From the sequence record OR896157.1: DNA of 64,000 nt. One strand, 5' to 3'. The DNA comes from a phage. The notes under the pieces were generated by a model. That model ran no database searches. It was not told the DNA's origin and saw only the letters and a program-made list of their open reading frames with translations. The position numbers and the translations under genes were made by a program. Positions 4,610 to 15,317 of this stretch are shown piece by piece (the stretch's first letter is position 1; each line of letters begins with the position of its first letter).

Positions 4610-6178
4610 ATGAAATTTGACGTCTTAAGTTTGTTCGCGCCGTGGGCCAAAGTCGACGAACAGGAATACGACCAGCAGCTAAATAATAATTTAGAGTCTA
4701 TCACGGCCCCTAAATTTGATGACGGCGCGACAGAGATTGAATCGGAACGTGGAGACATTGCAGGCGCTGGATTATTCCAGAGAATGTACGGTCAAAATGA
4801 ACCGGGAATGAAAAACACCAGGGAGCTTATCGATACTTACCGTCAGTTAATGAATAACTACGAAGTAGATAACGCTGTCCAAGAAATCGTCTTAGATGCA
4901 ATTGTATACGAAGATGATCATCCAGTTGTTTCATTGGATTTAGATAACACTGATTTTAGCCAGGCGATTAAAGACCGTTTACAAGAAGAATTTAACGAAG
5001 TTCTTACTTGTCTGAATTTTGAAAGAAAGGGTCTTGACCATTTCCGTCGCTGGTATGTCGATTCTCGTATCTTCTTCCATAAAATTATTAACCCTAAAAA
5101 ACCGAAAGAAGGTATTCAAGAGCTTCGTCGTTTAGACCCTCGCAATATTCAGTTCGTTCGTGAAGTTATCACTGACACTGAAGCGGGCGTGAAAATTGTT
5201 AAAGGCTACAAAGAATATTTCGTTTATAACACCGGTCACGAGTCTTATCAATGTGACGGTCGAATTTACGACGCTGGAACGAAAATTAAAATTCCAAAGG
5301 CTGCAGTTGTTTATGCACACTCTGGATTAGTTGATTGTTCAGGAAGAAACATCATCGGTTATTTGCACCGAGCTGTTAAACCTGCTAACCAGCTTAAACT
5401 GCTTGAAGACGCAATGGTGATTTATCGTATTACACGTGCGCCAGACCGTCGAGTATTTTACATTGACACAGGGAACATGCCTTCCCGTAAAGCTGCTGCT
5501 CATATGCAACACATCATGAACACCATGAAAAACCGTGTGGTATATGATGCGTCTACTGGTAAAATTAAAAACCAGCAGCACAATATGTCAATGACAGAAG
5601 ATTATTGGTTACAGCGCCGCGATGGTAAAGCTGTTACTGAAATTGATAATATGCCTGGTGCTTCAGGCATGAACGAAATGGACGATGTCCGTTGGTTCAA
5701 GAACAACCTTTACCAAGCATTACGTGTTCCACTGTCTCGTATCCCGAATGACCAACAAAGTGGAGTTCAGTTTGATGCTGGAACTGGAATTACACGTGAC
5801 GAGTTACAATTTGCTAAATTCATTCGTGAACTGCAGCATAAGTTTGAAGAAATTTTCCTCGACCCTCTTAAAACAAACCTTATTTTGAAAGGCGTAATGA
5901 GCGAAGATGATTGGAAAGATGAAATAAATAACATTAAGATAGTATTTCATCGTGACAGTTACTTCACTGAACTTAAAGATGCTGAAGTCACTGAACGCAG
6001 ATTCAATATGCTTCAAATGGCCGAACCGTTTATCGGTAAGTATATTTCTCATCAGACTGCAATGAAGACTATTCTTCAAATGACTGATGAACAAATTGAC
6101 CAAGAGGCTAAGCAAATTGAGCTAGAGTCTAAAGAGGCTCGTTTCCAAGACCCAGACCAAGAACAAGAGGATTTCTAA
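4610..6178 (+). CDS. 20: portal vertex protein gp20
   Basis: 522 aa from first ATG (track start 4598 is TTG); GGAG Shine-Dalgarno 6 nt upstream; T4 gp20 is 524 aa; synteny 19-20-67. Confidence 0.95.
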
Positions 6179-6426
6179 TGGAAGATTTCATCTCCGCACT
6201 CAAATCCAACGACCTCGTTAAAGCTAAGAAAGCCTTTGGTGCTATTATGCTTGAACAGACCGCTGATTTGATTAGCCAACGTCGTGTTGAGATTGCCCAA
6301 TCTATTATGATTGAAGGCGAAGAAAAAGAAGACGACGAAGACGAGAATGATGATTCTGAAGATGAAGGTAAAGAAAAACCTGAATCTAAAGATGAAAAAG
6401 ATTCTGAAGACGAAGACGAAGAATAA
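6178..6426 (+). CDS. 67: prohead core protein gp67
   Basis: 82 aa with strongly acidic E/D-rich C-terminal half, as in T4 gp67; ATG overlaps gene 20 stop. Confidence 0.85.
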   Translation: MEDFISALKSNDLVKAKKAFGAIMLEQTADLISQRRVEIAQSIMIEGEEKEDDEDENDDSEDEGKEKPESKDEKDSEDEDEE

Positions 6427-6435
6427 GGAGTCGCA

Positions 6436-6861
6436 ATGCTGATTGTTCCTGATGAGTACGAAGTCGTACTTGAAAACATCGAAGCAGCTATTCCTGAAGC
6501 CGAATCTCGTTTTAAGCAGTTGTCAGAAGCTCTCGATAAAGCAGACATAAATACAATTGTAGAAAACATGTTGCCAATTGAACCTGAAGTAGCAATTGCT
6601 ATGGGTTCACTGAATGAAGAAATGCAGCTCAATGAATTTATCGTTAAGCATGTTTCTTCTCGTGGAGAAATTACGCGTACTAAAGACCGTAAAACCCGCG
6701 AGCGCCAAGCATTCCAAACAACTGGTTTATCTAAAGCTAAACGTCGCGCTATCGCTCGAAAAGTCGTTAAGTCCAAACGCGCTAATCCGTCTGGTACTGT
6801 ACGAGGCAACCGCAAACGTAAGAAAGCTATGAAACGTCGTCAGGCGTTAGGATTAAGCTAA
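6436..6861 (+). CDS. 68: prohead core protein gp68
   Basis: 141 aa, basic C-terminus; T4 position between 67 and 21. Confidence 0.8.
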
Positions 6862-10021: not shown

Positions 10022-11305
10022 ATGGCTAACATCCATGACCTTCTGCGCGAATCAACTACAACGACGAGTTCAATTTCTGCCCGTCCTAGCCTCGTTGCAT
10101 TGACTCGCGCTACTACTAAATTAATTTACTCTGATATTGTAGCTACTCAGCGTACTACTCAACCTACTGCTGCTTTCTATGGTATCAAATACTTGAACCC
10201 TAACAAAGAATTAACGTTCCTTACTGGTGCTACCTACGCAGGTCAAACTGGTACTGAGGACCGTAAGTCTATTGAAACATTAACTGCTTCAAATAAAGAT
10301 TCATTTGGCAAGGGCGATTTATTCAAATACAATGACATTGTTTACAAAGTACTTGTAGATAATCCATTTGACCAGATTACTGAAACTGATTTAGAAGTTG
10401 TAATTCAGATTTCTCTGGTTAAACTCACTACTCGTTTAATGTCTGATGCTGCTATCACTTCCAAGTTTGAAACTGCTGGAGCTGATATCGCTGAAGCTAA
10501 ATTCCAAATTGATAAATGGCAGACTCAGGTTAAATCTCGTAAACTTAAAACGAGTTTGACTGTTGAATTGGCCCAGGACCTTGAAGCTAACGGCTTTGAT
10601 GCTTCTAATTTTATCGATGATTTACTGGCTACTGAAATGGCCGATGAAATTAACAAAGACATTTTACAAAGTCTTGTGACAGTTTCAAAACGATATAAAG
10701 TTGAAGGTATCACAGATACTGGATTCATCGATTTATCTTATGCATCTGCTCCAGAAGCTGGTCGTTCTCTGTATCGCATGGTATGCGAAATGGTTTCTCA
10801 TATTCAGCGTTCAACATCCTTTACTGCAACGTTTGCTGTAGCATCTACTCGTGCTGCTGCTGTTCTTGCTGCATCAGGTTGGTTGAAGCACCAAGCTGGT
10901 GACGATGAATATCTGTCAGAGAATGCCTATGGTTTCCTGGCGAATGGTTTGCCTCTGTATTGCGATACTAACACTCCACTTGATTATGTAATTGTCGGTG
11001 TAGTAGAAGATATTGGTGATAAAGAAGTTGTATCGAGTATTTTCTATGCTCCATACACTGAAGGTATCGACCTTGATGACCCGGAACATGTTGGTGCATT
11101 TAAAGTAATTGTTGACCCAGAAAGCTTACAGCCTTCTGTAGCTTTACTCGTTCGTTATGCACTGTCTGCTAACCCGTATACTGTAGCTAAAGATGAAAAG
11201 GAAGCTCGAATCATTGATGGCGGGGATATGGATAAGATGGCAGGACGTTCTGATTTATCAGTTCTTCTTGGTGTTAAGTTACCAAAAATCATCATTGAAG
11301 ACTAA
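10022..11305 (+). CDS. 24: capsid vertex protein gp24
   Basis: 427 aa, same length as T4 gp24; gp23-like paralog downstream of 23. Confidence 0.95.
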   Translation: MANIHDLLRESTTTTSSISARPSLVALTRATTKLIYSDIVATQRTTQPTAAFYGIKYLNPNKELTFLTGATYAGQTGTEDRKSIETLTASNKDSFGKGDLFKYNDIVYKVLVDNPFDQITETDLEVVIQISLVKLTTRLMSDAAITSKFETAGADIAEAKFQIDKWQTQVKSRKLKTSLTVELAQDLEANGFDASNFIDDLLATEMADEINKDILQSLVTVSKRYKVEGITDTGFIDLSYASAPEAGRSLYRMVCEMVSHIQRSTSFTATFAVASTRAAAVLAASGWLKHQAGDDEYLSENAYGFLANGLPLYCDTNTPLDYVIVGVVEDIGDKEVVSSIFYAPYTEGIDLDDPEHVGAFKVIVDPESLQPSVALLVRYALSANPYTVAKDEKEARIIDGGDMDKMAGRSDLSVLLGVKLPKIIIED

Positions 11306-11308
11306 AAG

Positions 11309-11334
11309 AAAGGGAACCTCACGGTTCCCTTTTG
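11309..11334. terminator. bidirectional hairpin terminator between gene 24 (+) and the convergent minus-strand operon
   Basis: AGGGAACC-TCAC-GGTTCCCT flanked by A-run upstream and T-run downstream. Confidence 0.6.
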
Positions 11335-11337
11335 TAG

Positions 11338-11883
11338 TTATAAAGCAAATATATCGAATGTTGGCGCGTACTTGTCTTTGAATCTCTGATAGATTTCCTT
11401 TTCATACAGATTGTAGCAAGGTATCCCATGACGCTTAGCTATATCAACGGCCACTCGTGTCCCTCCAGTAACGCTAGAGAGTTTTATTGGAGCATAGAAT
11501 AGTACCATATCCACGGGTGACTGGCAGTCCTCTCCGAGCACCTGAAGTGCATTGCGGGCAAATAAAGTCTTCACTATATCCCGGCACTCATCCCAGTAAC
11601 TTGTCACTTCTCTTACTTTAATTACACTCCTGATTCTCACTTCATTTGGAAAATCTTTCCACACCTTTACTCCAACTCCGGTTTTAAGACCATTGAAGCC
11701 TTCGTATGGTATGATACGTAATGAACGCTCACGGTCGTATCTACTGAGCCATGATTCATCTGCACCAGGAGCTCCTCCCGAATACGAAAAATGGCCCGAC
11801 TCCGAAAGAGCCTGACCAGTTAATGACATGACATCTAAAACACGACGTGGCGTCTCTCGAGAACCGATTAACGCCAAACGCAT
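11338..11883 (-). CDS. DprA/SLOG-like Rossmann-fold protein (nucleotide- or nucleic-acid-binding), function unknown
   Basis: 181 aa; N-terminal LALIGSRETP...FSYSGGAPGADESW resembles the DprA/Smf GSR and SGxAxGxD motifs; start codon overlaps rnlB stop (TAATG). Confidence 0.5.
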   Translation of the reverse strand: MRLALIGSRETPRRVLDVMSLTGQALSESGHFSYSGGAPGADESWLSRYDRERSLRIIPYEGFNGLKTGVGVKVWKDFPNEVRIRSVIKVREVTSYWDECRDIVKTLFARNALQVLGEDCQSPVDMVLFYAPIKLSSVTGGTRVAVDIAKRHGIPCYNLYEKEIYQRFKDKYAPTFDIFAL

Positions 11884-12887
11884 TAGTTACTTACCAGTTC
11901 AATCCAAACTGGACGAATTACGCCTTGCACGTAATTGACAAGTTCTTTCTTGACTACATCAGGATTGTCTGCATCGGTAATGAAGATTTCTTCACGACCA
12001 GCTTCTTCCAGAATGTCCTGGACAGTAAGACCCATAACTTTGCCAAAGTCTTTTGGACCAACTTGACCAATCTTACTGATAACGTTATTGACTCGGTTCA
12101 GAGTAGCATAAGCTGCCAGGGTGGAGAAAGTTACCTTATCAACATCAGTCAGTTCAACCTTAGCTTTAATAGGCTTATCGGATTTAGCTTTCTCAGAGAA
12201 CTTGGAGTTCTTGCATTTAATAGCTACACGAGAACCGTTAGGGAAGAATTTAGGGTAGCATGGTTTCAGAACGTAGCCTTCGGCAACATTTTCATTTGAT
12301 ACTACAGCATCGTATGTTGCGGTATTAGCAATTTCCAAACCTGCATCTCTTACAATATCATTATAATAATTTACAACTACGGATAAATCGTTTGGAATTT
12401 TAGCAAGGTCATCGAATTTACCACGACCCAGTAATGGAGCCATTTTAAACCCAAAAACATTACACATGCGTTCCATCATGAAATCATCGACATAAGACGA
12501 TTCACCGGATTCGGTAGTCACTTTAATATCAAAGACATAGAAGTCTTTTTCACCGTAATCAACACCTTTCTGAATTCCGCCACCAGCAAATTCACCAAAG
12601 ATTTGATAAGCTACAGTAGCACCAGTCAGTGCAGCTTGAACAGCTTTAAATGACTCGTTATAGCGACCCATGATAACCATATAGCCAAAGAAGTCTTCTG
12701 CTGGCAGAATAGGACCAGTACGCTTGGCAGGCTGAATTGAATCTTTAGTTACGATAACAGAGAAGTTAGTGCCGTGAATTTTCTCACGCGCTACCCAAGT
12801 TTCAGAGACATCAAAACCAGCATTACGAATACGCTCAATGAATTTACCGTTGTAGTGGTTCTCGAGCGTTGAATATTTCTCAAACAT
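11883..12887 (-). CDS. rnlB: RNA ligase 2 (Rnl2)
   Basis: 334 aa, same length as T4 Rnl2; nucleotidyltransferase lysine motif KIHGTN; T4 position downstream of 24. Confidence 0.93.
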
Positions 12888-12895
12888 ATTTCACC

Positions 12896-13144
12896 TTAGA
12901 ATTTAATTTTGAAAGACTGACCTTGATAGTCAGCATTGAACTCATATGAGAAGCCATTTTTAGAAAAGAATACTTTCATAGCTTCTACATTATTGCTCCA
13001 TTTTTCTGGAACAATATAAAACGTTTCAAACTTACCACGTTGTGCTGCGTTCCGCAGGTTATCTTTAATATGAGCTTTAATATCTTCTGGTAGTTCATCA
13101 CGCACACCCTGTGCCAATGCTCTGTATTCTTGAGCTAGACTCAT
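12896..13144 (-). CDS. hypothetical protein
   Basis: 82 aa from first ATG with GGTGA Shine-Dalgarno (track start 13153 is GTG); precedes rnlB on the same strand. Confidence 0.55.
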   Translation of the reverse strand: MSLAQEYRALAQGVRDELPEDIKAHIKDNLRNAAQRGKFETFYIVPEKWSNNVEAMKVFFSKNGFSYEFNADYQGQSFKIKF

Positions 13145-13258
13145 TATAATCACCGTATAAATATCAATAATTAGGGAGGGTTCTATCCTTCTATGGTCAA
13201 GCGTATGTACTAGAAAGAATCCGTGAAACCATTATACCACGCGGATTCTTTAAGCATA

Positions 13259-13838: not shown

Positions 13839-13893
13839 TACTTTATCCTACAGTGAAAGTTGTTGGTATAATACCACTCTCTAGAAAAAGCAA

Positions 13894-13913
13894 AAGGAGC
13901 CCGAAGGCTCCTT
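13894..13913 (-). terminator. C(UUCG)G hairpin terminator downstream of hoc
   Basis: Plus-strand AAGGAGCC-CGAA-GGCTCCTT, i.e. UUCG loop in minus-strand RNA; followed on the minus strand by TTGCTTTTT. Confidence 0.6.
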
Positions 13914-15317
13914 TTAATAGATGATGCCAGCTTCTAAAGCTGAACGATGAACAATACGTCCATTCCGTGATTCTTGCACATCAACTTCTGGATAATCATC
14001 TAGCATTTTAGCTAGTGTATATCGGTGCAAGTAATAATCGCTGTCGGTGTCATCAAGTTTCCAATCTTTTCCTGCGACAGTCATTTCTTGGATTTCATCC
14101 ATGACCCACCAACCACACCAGATATAGGCTGTTCCTCGGAATGGCAGAGGATGAATATACGGAAGTTCTCCATCAGGGGCAGGAGCTACCCTTTTAGTAA
14201 TAGTTACATCACCAGTTGTAGTGACTGTAACAGGAGTGTAATCTTCTGCGGAAACATCAACAGAAACACCAATCACTTGGGACCCTATATCAGACGTGTC
14301 AATCACTAAAGTGCTAGTAGAACCTTCTACAGGAGAACCATCTTTAGTCCAAGAATAAACCCCAGTTGCACCTTCAGGAGCACCGATAACATTGGCTTTA
14401 AAAGACGCCTCAGACCCCTGCTCGGTCGTAATAGACTCAGGAGTCAAAGTAACTGAAACCCCGCTCATGGTCTTTTTGGTAATCGTTACATTACCGGTTT
14501 TAGTAACTGTAACGGGTTTATAATCTGGAGCAGAAACAACAGCAGAAACCTCAATTGCCTGCGACCCGATAGTGGATGTATCAATTTCTAGCGTACTTGT
14601 TGAGCCTTCTATAGGAGAACCGTCTTTGGCCCATGAGTAAGCTACAGATGCTCCCGCCGGCGCTCCAGTAACATCGGCTTTAAAAGATGCTTCTGCTCCC
14701 TTTTCAGCGGTAATTGAACTAGGCGTCAGAGTAACAGAAACACCACTCATGGTCTTTTTAGTGATGGTTACGCTAGCACCTTTGCTTACAGTCACTGGAT
14801 TGTAATCTGGTGCAGAAACTGTTGCTTCACAATTCAGAGTATAATTAGCCTCTGCTGACTCAGTTATGGTAATCGTTTTAGCAGTCTGACCTTCAATAAC
14901 GACAGTACCACGCTTCCAAACATAAGCAATGCTTGCACCTTCTGGAGCACCAACAACGTTAGCCGTAACTACCTGAGACTGGCCAATTTCTTTAGAAACA
15001 GAAGTCGGGCTCAAAGTTAAAGTAATCGCAGGCATAGTTTTGTTCTGAACTGTAAGAGTGGTTTCTGCCTCAGCAGTTTCTGCCTCACCCTCTGCTGGGG
15101 TAACAGTAGCAACTACTTTAACAGTCTTACTGCCGGCAGGTCCTGCAGCAACATAATTCATAGCTGCGGTGACAGAAGATTGTTTTACGCCATTTACTGT
15201 CCATACAAACGTTTCTGTGCCTTCAGCTGCGGCTCCAGAAGTTGTTGCAGTAAAATTGGTTGTTGCTCCAATGACTGCCGAAGCAGCCAAAGGAGCAATA
15301 GATACGCTATAAGCCAT
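13914..15317 (-). CDS. hoc: Hoc, highly immunogenic outer capsid protein (decoration protein with Ig-like domains)
   Basis: 467 aa; C-terminal domain ...APAPDGELPYIHPLPFRGTAYIWCGWWVMDEIQ... matches T4 Hoc capsid-binding domain as recalled; repeated Ig-like modules. Confidence 0.9.
   Translation of the reverse strand: MAYSVSIAPLAASAVIGATTNFTATTSGAAAEGTETFVWTVNGVKQSSVTAAMNYVAAGPAGSKTVKVVATVTPAEGEAETAEAETTLTVQNKTMPAITLTLSPTSVSKEIGQSQVVTANVVGAPEGASIAYVWKRGTVVIEGQTAKTITITESAEANYTLNCEATVSAPDYNPVTVSKGASVTITKKTMSGVSVTLTPSSITAEKGAEASFKADVTGAPAGASVAYSWAKDGSPIEGSTSTLEIDTSTIGSQAIEVSAVVSAPDYKPVTVTKTGNVTITKKTMSGVSVTLTPESITTEQGSEASFKANVIGAPEGATGVYSWTKDGSPVEGSTSTLVIDTSDIGSQVIGVSVDVSAEDYTPVTVTTTGDVTITKRVAPAPDGELPYIHPLPFRGTAYIWCGWWVMDEIQEMTVAGKDWKLDDTDSDYYLHRYTLAKMLDDYPEVDVQESRNGRIVHRSALEAGIIY
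14205..14768 (-). repeat. in-frame tandem duplication (2 x 282 nt) encoding two about 80 percent identical 94-aa Ig-like modules within hoc
   Basis: Protein residues 184-277 and 278-371 both begin TITKKTMSGVSVTLTP and align over their full length. Confidence 0.8.

Follow-up and report, generated by a model that had tools for sequence, protein, structure and literature searches.

Gene content and organization of the locus

The window analysed here is a stretch of 64,000 nucleotides (sequence record OR896157.1) from an Enterobacter phage that is T4-like and falls in the CC31/PG7 group (Karamvirus), and this study concerns a 181-aa open reading frame (ORF) that directly follows rnlB, the gene for T4-type RNA ligase 2 (Rnl2), and encodes a small protein with a SLOG domain (hereafter the SLOG protein; its translation includes FSYSGGAPGADESW). 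The region 10900-13200 shared 98% identity with Enterobacter phage EnA02 and 91-96% with many relatives. The 334-aa rnlB product matched Pfam RNA_ligase (2.6e-21), T4_Rnl2_C (7e-18), and PHROG 548 "RNA ligase" (3.8e-123), and was 67.8% identical to T4 Rnl2 (tblastn). A sequence-only reading of the window had the SLOG ORF starting on the final base of the rnlB stop, and both the ORF list and the sequence confirmed this: plus-strand positions 11881-11886 read cattag, with the rnlB TAA at 11885-11883 and the SLOG ATG at 11883-11881 having one base in common.

The SLOG ATG is preceded by GGTAAGTAACTAATG, without a clear Shine-Dalgarno sequence, and rnlB is preceded by AAGGTGAAATATG. The lack of a clear Shine-Dalgarno sequence at the SLOG ATG makes re-initiation after rnlB plausible in this phage, and ribosomes that have just terminated on rnlB probably translate the SLOG ORF. 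Under a simple gene selection, the window contains 72 same-strand pairs of neighbouring genes, of which 19 (26%) overlapped by exactly 1 or 4 nt and 11 others in different ways. The TAATG overlap is therefore ordinary here; it reflects compact gene packing and probably co-expression, and alone says little on shared function.

The terminator-like hairpin located between convergent gene 24 and the SLOG ORF, 5 nt past the end of the latter, looks bidirectional from its sequence and probably terminates both transcription units. On the other side of rnlB, the 85-aa gene is apparently the first of a unit that runs from this 24.2-like gene through rnlB to the SLOG gene. A site that we liken to a T4 middle promoter, presumably with a MotA-type box, is placed within the gap of 105 nt that precedes the 85-aa gene; a sigma-70 consensus scan did not list it. 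An inverted repeat (GAATCCG...CGGATTC, around 13216-13248) overlaps this site. A second strong terminator-like hairpin lies at 13891-13916, directly after a hoc-like gene (13914-15317), and the two hairpins bound a short unit of five small genes, with rnlB and the SLOG gene last.

Table 1. Features of the rnlB-SLOG locus, in positions of the window.
Feature	Position	Strand	Basis
Terminator-like hairpin GGGAACC-loop-GGTTCCC, A/T runs on both sides	11309..11332	.	Terminator scan and sequence
SLOG ORF, 181 aa; stand-alone SLOG-domain protein, DprA-like clade, PHROG 768	11338..11883	minus	ORF list
TAATG stop/start overlap of rnlB and the SLOG ORF	11881..11885	minus	Direct sequence reading
rnlB, T4-type RNA ligase 2, 334 aa	11883..12887	minus	Pfam, PHROG, tblastn
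85-aa gene upstream of rnlB, PHROG 3012 (no assigned function)	12896..13153	minus	ORF list, PHROG match
T4 middle-promoter-like site, TGCTTAA (MotA-box-like)-13 nt-TATAAT	13231..13256	minus	Sequence reading

Sequence family and predicted fold of the SLOG protein

The SLOG protein matched PHROG 768 "DprA-like DNA recombination-mediator protein" (E 4.1e-57, 193.8 bits), with residues 2-174 aligned to profile positions 5-181 of 191. Its sole Pfam match was DNA_processg_A (PF02481) over residues 3-43, at 13.5 bits and thus below the gathering threshold of 29.6 bits. An NCBIfam search gave no match, a single-sequence search of the PDB returned nothing relevant, and a PADLOC scan yielded one weak PsyrA match (E 0.011). 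A database search retrieved 57 homologs, of which 42, with identity down to 27%, were aligned (alignment A1). A PDB profile search with A1 gave marginal N-terminal matches only (DprA 0.024, LOG 0.068), and hhalign of A1 against single-sequence E. coli Smf aligned the N-terminal 47 residues with a probability of 8.6%.

The residues I6, G7, S8, R9, P12, G37, A38, P39, G40, D42, L107, R110, Q114, G140, G141, and T142 were invariant in the 42 homologs, and E10, S35, G36, N111 (at least 90% of members), and A145 were nearly so. The Gly-rich nucleotide-binding loops GSR, SGGAPGxD, and GGT were kept throughout. The sequence-only reading had singled out GSR and SGxAxGxD signatures; both are present (as GSR and SGGAPGAD) and belong to the invariant core, and given this conservation across the 42 sequences they are not a product of chance. 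Most family members are basic, with a pI of about 8.5-9.5.

An AlphaFold2 model computed with A1 (pLDDT 93.4, pTM 0.88) consisted of alternating strands and helices. Foldseek with this model placed Helicobacter pylori DprA (HpDprA) at the top (E 4e-5, TM 0.55-0.59, with a superposition on DprA that covers only ~130 residues), and DprA and other SLOG proteins were the only strong structural matches. In BFVD, the model matched phage proteins named "DprA-like", "Phi92_gp047", and "DNA recombination-mediator protein A" at TM 0.75-0.86, and YspA/cpYpsA-type SLOG proteins matched worse (TM about 0.41-0.46). Across the 42 family members, Pfam DNA_processg_A was found below threshold in 36 (best 1.1e-5) and SLOG cluster 4 in 8, and none of the 42 matched LOG (PF03641, Lysine_decarbox), YpsA (PF06908), or YAcAr (PF10686). 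On the PHROG match, the predicted structure, the Foldseek and BFVD results, and the family-wide Pfam scan, the SLOG Rossmannoid fold (three-layer alpha/beta with a parallel sheet) is established, and DprA is the nearest characterised family by modelled structure and by sequence. The protein belongs to a distinct DprA-like clade without a Pfam model of its own. The fold proposed from the sequence alone was thus right, the suggested comparison with the DprA, LOG, and YpsA families came out in favour of DprA, and the ORF corresponds to no known T4 24.x gene of a different fold.

A conserved DprA-type pocket and its proposed function

In the structure of HpDprA with single-stranded DNA (ssDNA), one thymine inserts into a conserved pocket (Wang et al., 2014; PMC3950713). 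Two ssDNA-binding motifs were proposed to define the DprA domain, namely G-S/T/A-R (G50-R52) and F/L/Y-x-x-R-N/D (F140-N144); R52 is the switch arginine of the pocket, and affinity falls ~315-fold in R52E and ~173-fold in R143E (PMC3950713). Both motifs are conserved in the SLOG protein, the first as the invariant G7-S8-R9 and the second as L107-x-x-R110-N111 within a predicted helix (102-116). When E. coli Smf was read by eye in four motif blocks, VVGSR corresponded to LIGSR of the SLOG protein, SGLARGID to SGGAPGAD, FPRRNRIISGLS to LFARNALQVLG, and SGSLVTA to GGTRVAV. The DprA proteins of H. pylori (4LJK/4LJR) and R. palustris (3MAJ) have the same motif order, that is, GSR, SGxAxGxD, (F/L)xxRN, and G(G/S)xxT.

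On the other hand, the SLOG protein is a single-domain Rossmann core that lacks the N-terminal SAM and the C-terminal DML1 winged-helix domains of DprA; the DprA domain alone spans ~205 aa in bacteria and the whole of E. coli Smf 374 aa. Unlike bacterial DprA, the phage family has invariants of its own (E10, P12, P39, and Q114, with E10 nearly invariant), is encoded by lytic phages, and is fused to NADAR, Macro, and DUF4326 domains rather than associated with competence genes. The LOG cytokinin/AMP phosphoribohydrolases (5WQ3, 9US2, 1WEK) carry a catalytic Glu in PGGxGTxxE, whereas the SLOG protein has Ala145 there; the family motif at this site is GGT(R/G)xA, with a Val or Gln two residues past Thr142. 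ShosA, the DprA-like antitoxin of ShosTA (8ZVA), and the SLOG domain of ThsA (7UXS) belong, unlike the SLOG protein, to multi-domain proteins that are encoded by the host and act in defence systems.

The explanation that we tentatively favour is a DprA-type nucleotide-grasping module whose targets in repair and counter-defence would be single-stranded or damaged nucleic acids, and that would be co-expressed with Rnl2 in this phage without being obligatorily tied to it. We infer a mechanism in which the SLOG gene would be the last of a probable early or middle unit (85-aa gene, rnlB, SLOG gene, terminator) and GSR(E), SGGAPGxD, LxxRNxxQ, and GGT would together form the pocket. The equivalent residues R52, F140, R143, and N144 of HpDprA hold one flipped-out ssDNA base (PMC3950713); the phage protein would likewise grasp one nucleotide of single-stranded or damaged nucleic acid. 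It would then be a factor for recognition or protection when the phage repairs nucleic acid and counters defence, a functional area that it would share with nick-sealing ligases and with the ADP-ribose-removing NADAR and Macro domains fused to family members.

Several points weigh against this explanation. Comparable SLOG pockets bind small nucleotides (AMP in LOG, cyclic ADP-ribose in ThsA), so that a free derivative of ADP-ribose might be the ligand. The near-invariant polar residues E10, D42, and Q114 are family-specific and would suit an enzyme. The DUF4326, NADAR, Macro, and MazG partners were read as a small-molecule context by Iyer et al. (2022; PMC9503650). The Pfam score of the SLOG protein falls short of its threshold, and the superposition on DprA is confined to part of the chain. 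A literature search found no experimental study on this PHROG 768 family, and the gene-context counts given below are raw record counts, uncorrected for phylogeny or redundant isolates.

Distribution and previous annotation

SLOG homologs were detected by tblastn in 1,356 of 50,697 phage records, with hosts that include Klebsiella, Pseudomonas, Escherichia, Aeromonas, Vibrio, Acinetobacter, and others. With cut-offs of E <= 1e-3 and E <= 1e-30, a hidden Markov model (HMM) search of 1.84 billion representative proteins returned 6,388 and 2,564 clusters, respectively. RefSeq labels the gene "DprA-like DNA recombination-mediator protein" in CC31, PG7, and other phages, and one Klebsiella phage record names the homolog "YspA SLOG family protein". 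The SLOG gene is thus already recorded as a member of a very large annotated phage family, and is an accessory gene.

A survey of viral SLOG domains reported that 19% of medium-sized phages and 31% of jumbo phages encode them (Iyer, Burroughs, and Aravind, Viruses 2022; PMC9503650). It described Macro and NADAR as fusion partners and predicted that viral SLOG domains counter host signals derived from ADP-ribose. The DprA/Smf copies of jumbo phages were earlier suggested to be extra ssDNA-binding proteins (Iyer et al., 2021; PMC7824862). Macro, NADAR, and DUF4326 as fusion partners or neighbours are common to the proteins of these surveys and to the present family; the surveys place most viral SLOG proteins in a YpsA-like clade and predict that they act on soluble ADP-ribose derivatives, whereas the present family is closest to DprA.

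Fused domains and neighbouring genes across phages

Of the 150 best representatives of the family, 47 were longer than ~230 aa, and these were scanned for Pfam domains. DUF4326 was fused in 10 of these 47 long members, NADAR in 8, Macro and RecJ-like DHH/DHHA1/OB domains in 2 each, and MazG in 1. Additional SLOG domains occurred in giant proteins of ~1,470 aa, and one IMG/VR locus (L083) encodes DUF4326 fused to a SLOG domain of this family. Three giant proteins (P0058, P0059, and P0157; 1,459-1,488 aa) contained two or three SLOG copies each; P0058, the only one scanned in detail, also contained YAcAr, SLOG-cluster-4, and a C-terminal NADAR. The giant proteins resemble phage polyvalent proteins. 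Since NADAR and Macro domains can strip ADP-ribose both from DNA bases (DarT-NADAR, DarTG) and from small molecules, the fusions are compatible with a polynucleotide ligand and with a free one. The fusion partners suggest that the family belongs among enzymes for ADP-ribose adducts or derivatives and for nucleic-acid ends, in counter-defence or repair.

Neighbouring genes within 6 kb were compiled for 80 IMG/VR SLOG loci and five loci from phage records, which formed 42 lineages at 60% identity. A Macro-domain gene was present in 8 of the 42 lineages. A Pfam scan of 150 neighbours from 33 non-T4-like lineages found no dominant partner: DNA polymerase A, ClpP, and superfamily 1 (SF1) helicase had counts of 3 each, and RNA ligase, DNA ligase, NADAR, Macro, PTH2, thymidylate synthase, and thymidylate kinase counts of 2 each.

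A second phage SLOG family with a counter-defence phenotype

In the Seuratvirus PhiDruSM1, single deletion of ORF55 (an ATP-dependent DNA ligase) or ORF83 ("Smf/DprA") lowered plating on AVAST type III (Avs type III) hosts (Ojima et al., 10.1101/2024.04.14.589459). ORF83 was modelled as an AMP-binding, LOG-like protein with R89, N90, T112, and D114 as key residues, and its homologs in amoeba viruses are fused to DUF4326 (10.1101/2025.06.06.658234). The 130-aa "hypothetical protein" gp80 of Escherichia phage Seurat (L088:38156-38548) matched Pfam YAcAr/YspA (PF10686; E 4.9e-18) and carries R89, N90, T112, and D114 at the positions reported for ORF83, which makes it very probably the ORF83 ortholog. 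The pocket motifs of gp80/ORF83 (GGR, GDADGVD, YRNQ, GGAGT, and GIP) follow the same order as those of the present family, and both ORF83 and the SLOG protein are small stand-alone phage SLOG proteins with DUF4326-fused relatives. ORF83 and gp80 nevertheless represent a different SLOG family: hhalign between the SLOG family and Seurat gp80 gave a probability of 0.3%, the family HMM found no homolog in Seurat positions 15-56.8 kb, and the partner ligase of ORF83 is a non-adjacent DNA ligase. The deletion phenotype of ORF83 was also seen for that ligase knockout. The PhiDruSM1 deletions show that, in a phage, a ligase and a small SLOG protein can each be of importance against a nuclease-type defence; ORF83 is taken as a lead only, not as evidence on the present gene.

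Free nucleotides as possible alternative ligands

The pocket could instead bind, and perhaps cleave or sequester, free ADP-ribose, a cyclic ADP-ribose isomer, Appr1p, or AMP, and would thereby blunt NAD- or ADP-ribose-based immune signalling or clear ADP-ribose by-products. We regard this as possible but doubtful. The counts of DUF4326, NADAR, Macro, and MazG fusions and the Macro genes near SLOG in 8 of the 42 lineages are consistent with it, as are the nicotinamide phosphoribosyltransferase (NAMPT) gene 1.3 kb downstream of the rnlB-SLOG pair in phage RB16, the prediction that viral SLOG proteins sense or degrade ADP-ribose derivatives (PMC9503650), and the anti-Avs3 protein ORF83, a predicted AMP binder with the same motif order. 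However, the nearest relative is DprA and not LOG, ThsA, or YpsA, and the catalytic Glu of LOG is replaced by Ala145, with Val or Gln two residues past Thr142. NADAR and Macro fusions fit ADP-ribosylated nucleic acids equally well, and the RecJ-like fusions and the ligase and helicase neighbours fit a polynucleotide substrate better.

Linkage of the SLOG gene with RNA ligase 2

The sequence-only reading had also noted that such a gene is not known at this position in T4, and had proposed a two-component module with Rnl2. The first point is correct, as T4 rnlB ends 29 nt from convergent gene 24 and there is no ORF between them. The second was examined by tblastn with the Rnl2 and SLOG sequences concatenated, and the genes were taken as adjacent where one place covered at least 80% of the query. 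Rnl2 homologs were present in 1,410 phage records (tblastn), and the concatenated query matched 2,159 records, 428 of which had Rnl2 followed by SLOG on one strand. Records with both genes numbered ~607 (1,410 + 1,356 - 2,159), so that adjacency was kept in 71% of the phages having both (428/~607); the SLOG gene was directly downstream in 30% of Rnl2 phages, and Rnl2 directly upstream in 32% of SLOG phages. Adjacent pairs spanned several Straboviridae genera, including Karamvirus, Slopekvirus-type Klebsiella phages, Salmonella phages S16 and SEA1, and, in the variants described below, Erwinia phage Cronus and phages of the Muldoon and RB16/RB43 types, and held down to ~35% SLOG and ~44% Rnl2 identity. 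A literature search found no paper connecting RNA ligase 2 or rnlB with a DprA-like gene here.

Other arrangements were found as well. The two genes are 135 nt apart in Erwinia phage Cronus; two ORFs are inserted between them in Serratia phages of the Muldoon type, and one or two in relatives; and they are 15 kb apart in Acinetobacter phage Kimel. In phage JSE and Aeromonas phage Ah1, the SLOG gene lies beside gene 24 and rnlB is absent there. In RB16/RB43-type phages, the rnlB-SLOG pair adjoins srd and NAMPT rather than gene 24. This was considered as a case of the pair moving alone and was downgraded, since the DUF2774 gene found upstream in the window is also retained; the same ancestral block was relocated, and the arrangement is not independent evidence. 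The NAMPT gene of RB16 (L001:5837-7270; NAMPT_N + NAPRTase) is separated from the pair by three small ORFs without Pfam matches.

A 299-aa NCBI protein from a 100-kb contig (P0024) was considered as a Rosetta-stone Rnl2::SLOG fusion and rejected, as parts of both proteins are missing. An internal deletion joins a truncated Rnl2 (nucleotidyltransferase and C-terminal fragments) in frame to SLOG residue ~60, which has the look of a deletion spanning the junction of the two genes, whether natural or introduced by assembly, and not of a designed fusion. In one PG7-type locus (L009) the SLOG gene is split into two ORFs (6001-6129 and 6111-6548) with rnlB intact, and in another (L015) Rnl2 is split (5004-5720 and 5732-6004) with the SLOG gene intact; these splits by frameshift or stop could be sequencing errors or independent decay of one partner.

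Among the 42 lineages, Rnl2 was upstream of the SLOG gene on the same strand in 8. Three further lineages had another RNA ligase nearby, with a PHA02142 OB domain and PF09414, an architecture that we take to be Rnl5-like; in phiN3-like contigs it lies one or two genes from the SLOG gene. A PF09414 RNA ligase without the OB domain was located 4 kb downstream of the SLOG gene in one more lineage (L052), and an ATP-dependent DNA ligase was found three to four genes upstream in 3 of the 42 lineages. In one 206,713-bp contig (IMG/VR 2706795670; L063:4515-6504), the Rnl5-like ligase, a 131-aa ORF without Pfam match, and the SLOG gene overlap end to end, and a Macro-domain gene lies ~4 kb upstream. 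Of all the arguments for a functional link, the strongest is this non-orthologous ligase near the same SLOG family. In the reciprocal test, a SLOG gene was within 6 kb at 4 of 80 Rnl5-like ligase loci, three of which were contigs already found, so that this link is confined to a small, unrelated clade.

These data bear on whether Rnl2 and the SLOG protein form a dedicated pair in an RNA-end processing and sealing module, where the SLOG protein might, for example, present, unblock, or protect the nick. The concept has a precedent in the healing-and-sealing pair of T4 Pnkp and Rnl1, likewise a phage RNA ligase plus a second protein that prepares the ends; Pnkp, however, has defined kinase/phosphatase chemistry and a known target (PrrC-cut tRNA-Lys), and Rnl2 often occurs without SLOG. 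The TAATG overlap without an obvious Shine-Dalgarno sequence, the 428 adjacent records, the persistence of adjacency at low identity and in the RB16/RB43 block away from gene 24, and the Rnl5-like ligase beside the same SLOG family in phiN3-like contigs all argue for such a partnership. In contrast, ~70% of Rnl2 phages, T4 and T2 included, have no SLOG gene downstream (~57% have none genome-wide), and ~68% of SLOG phages have no Rnl2 upstream (~55% have no Rnl2 at all). The two genes are thus not co-occurring and adjacent wherever either is found, and the cases of JSE, Ah1, and Kimel, the ORFs or 135 nt inserted in other genera, the 4 of 80 Rnl5-like loci, the non-independent RB16 relocation, the stop/start overlaps common in the window, and the deletion chimera P0024 all count against a dedicated partner, which we consider improbable. 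The sequence-only reading is borne out in part, in that the fold is right while the idea of a two-component Rnl2 module marked by the TAATG overlap is weakly supported. The SLOG gene is a frequent, dispensable companion of Rnl2 and not its subunit, and the link is suggestive, not compelling.

A role as a true recombination mediator like bacterial DprA, which loads UvsX or host RecA on ssDNA, or as an additional ssDNA-binding protein as suggested for jumbo-phage DprA/Smf (PMC7824862), is highly improbable: the DprA motifs and fold and the helicase, DNA polymerase, and DNA ligase neighbours of some lineages agree with it, but the protein is a Rossmann core only, without SAM or DML1 and with a sub-threshold Pfam DprA score, equivalents of the dimer-interface residues (Hp P183, L196, F205) and of the RecA-contact residues were not identified, and the fusion partners are ADP-ribose-processing domains and not recombination proteins. 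T4-like phages, moreover, already encode the mediator UvsY.

Implications for the phage SLOG family and RNA ligase 2

On the present data, the SLOG gene belongs to a known family and is ordinary as an accessory gene. The "recombination mediator" label of this large family comes from annotation pipelines, and the NADAR, Macro, DUF4326, and RecJ-like partners suggest that its members could undo host defences based on nucleic acid or ADP-ribose.

A further view, which we offer as a long shot, is that the SLOG protein helps nick-sealing ligases by recognising, and perhaps helping to remove, a nucleotide-type block or lesion at or near a strand break. The block might be an ADP-ribosylated base, a 5'-phosphate cap, or an abortive 5'-AMP, and Rnl2, or elsewhere an Rnl5-like RNA ligase or a DNA ligase, would then reseal the defence-damaged nucleic acid. 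To our knowledge, no physiological substrate has been assigned to T4-type RNA ligase 2 in the years after its description in 2002. A neighbour of Rnl2 that recurs and carries a nucleotide-grasping pocket offers an inexpensive lead on that substrate, and a helper role of this kind, if true, would be a pointer to the long-sought natural substrate of T4-type Rnl2.

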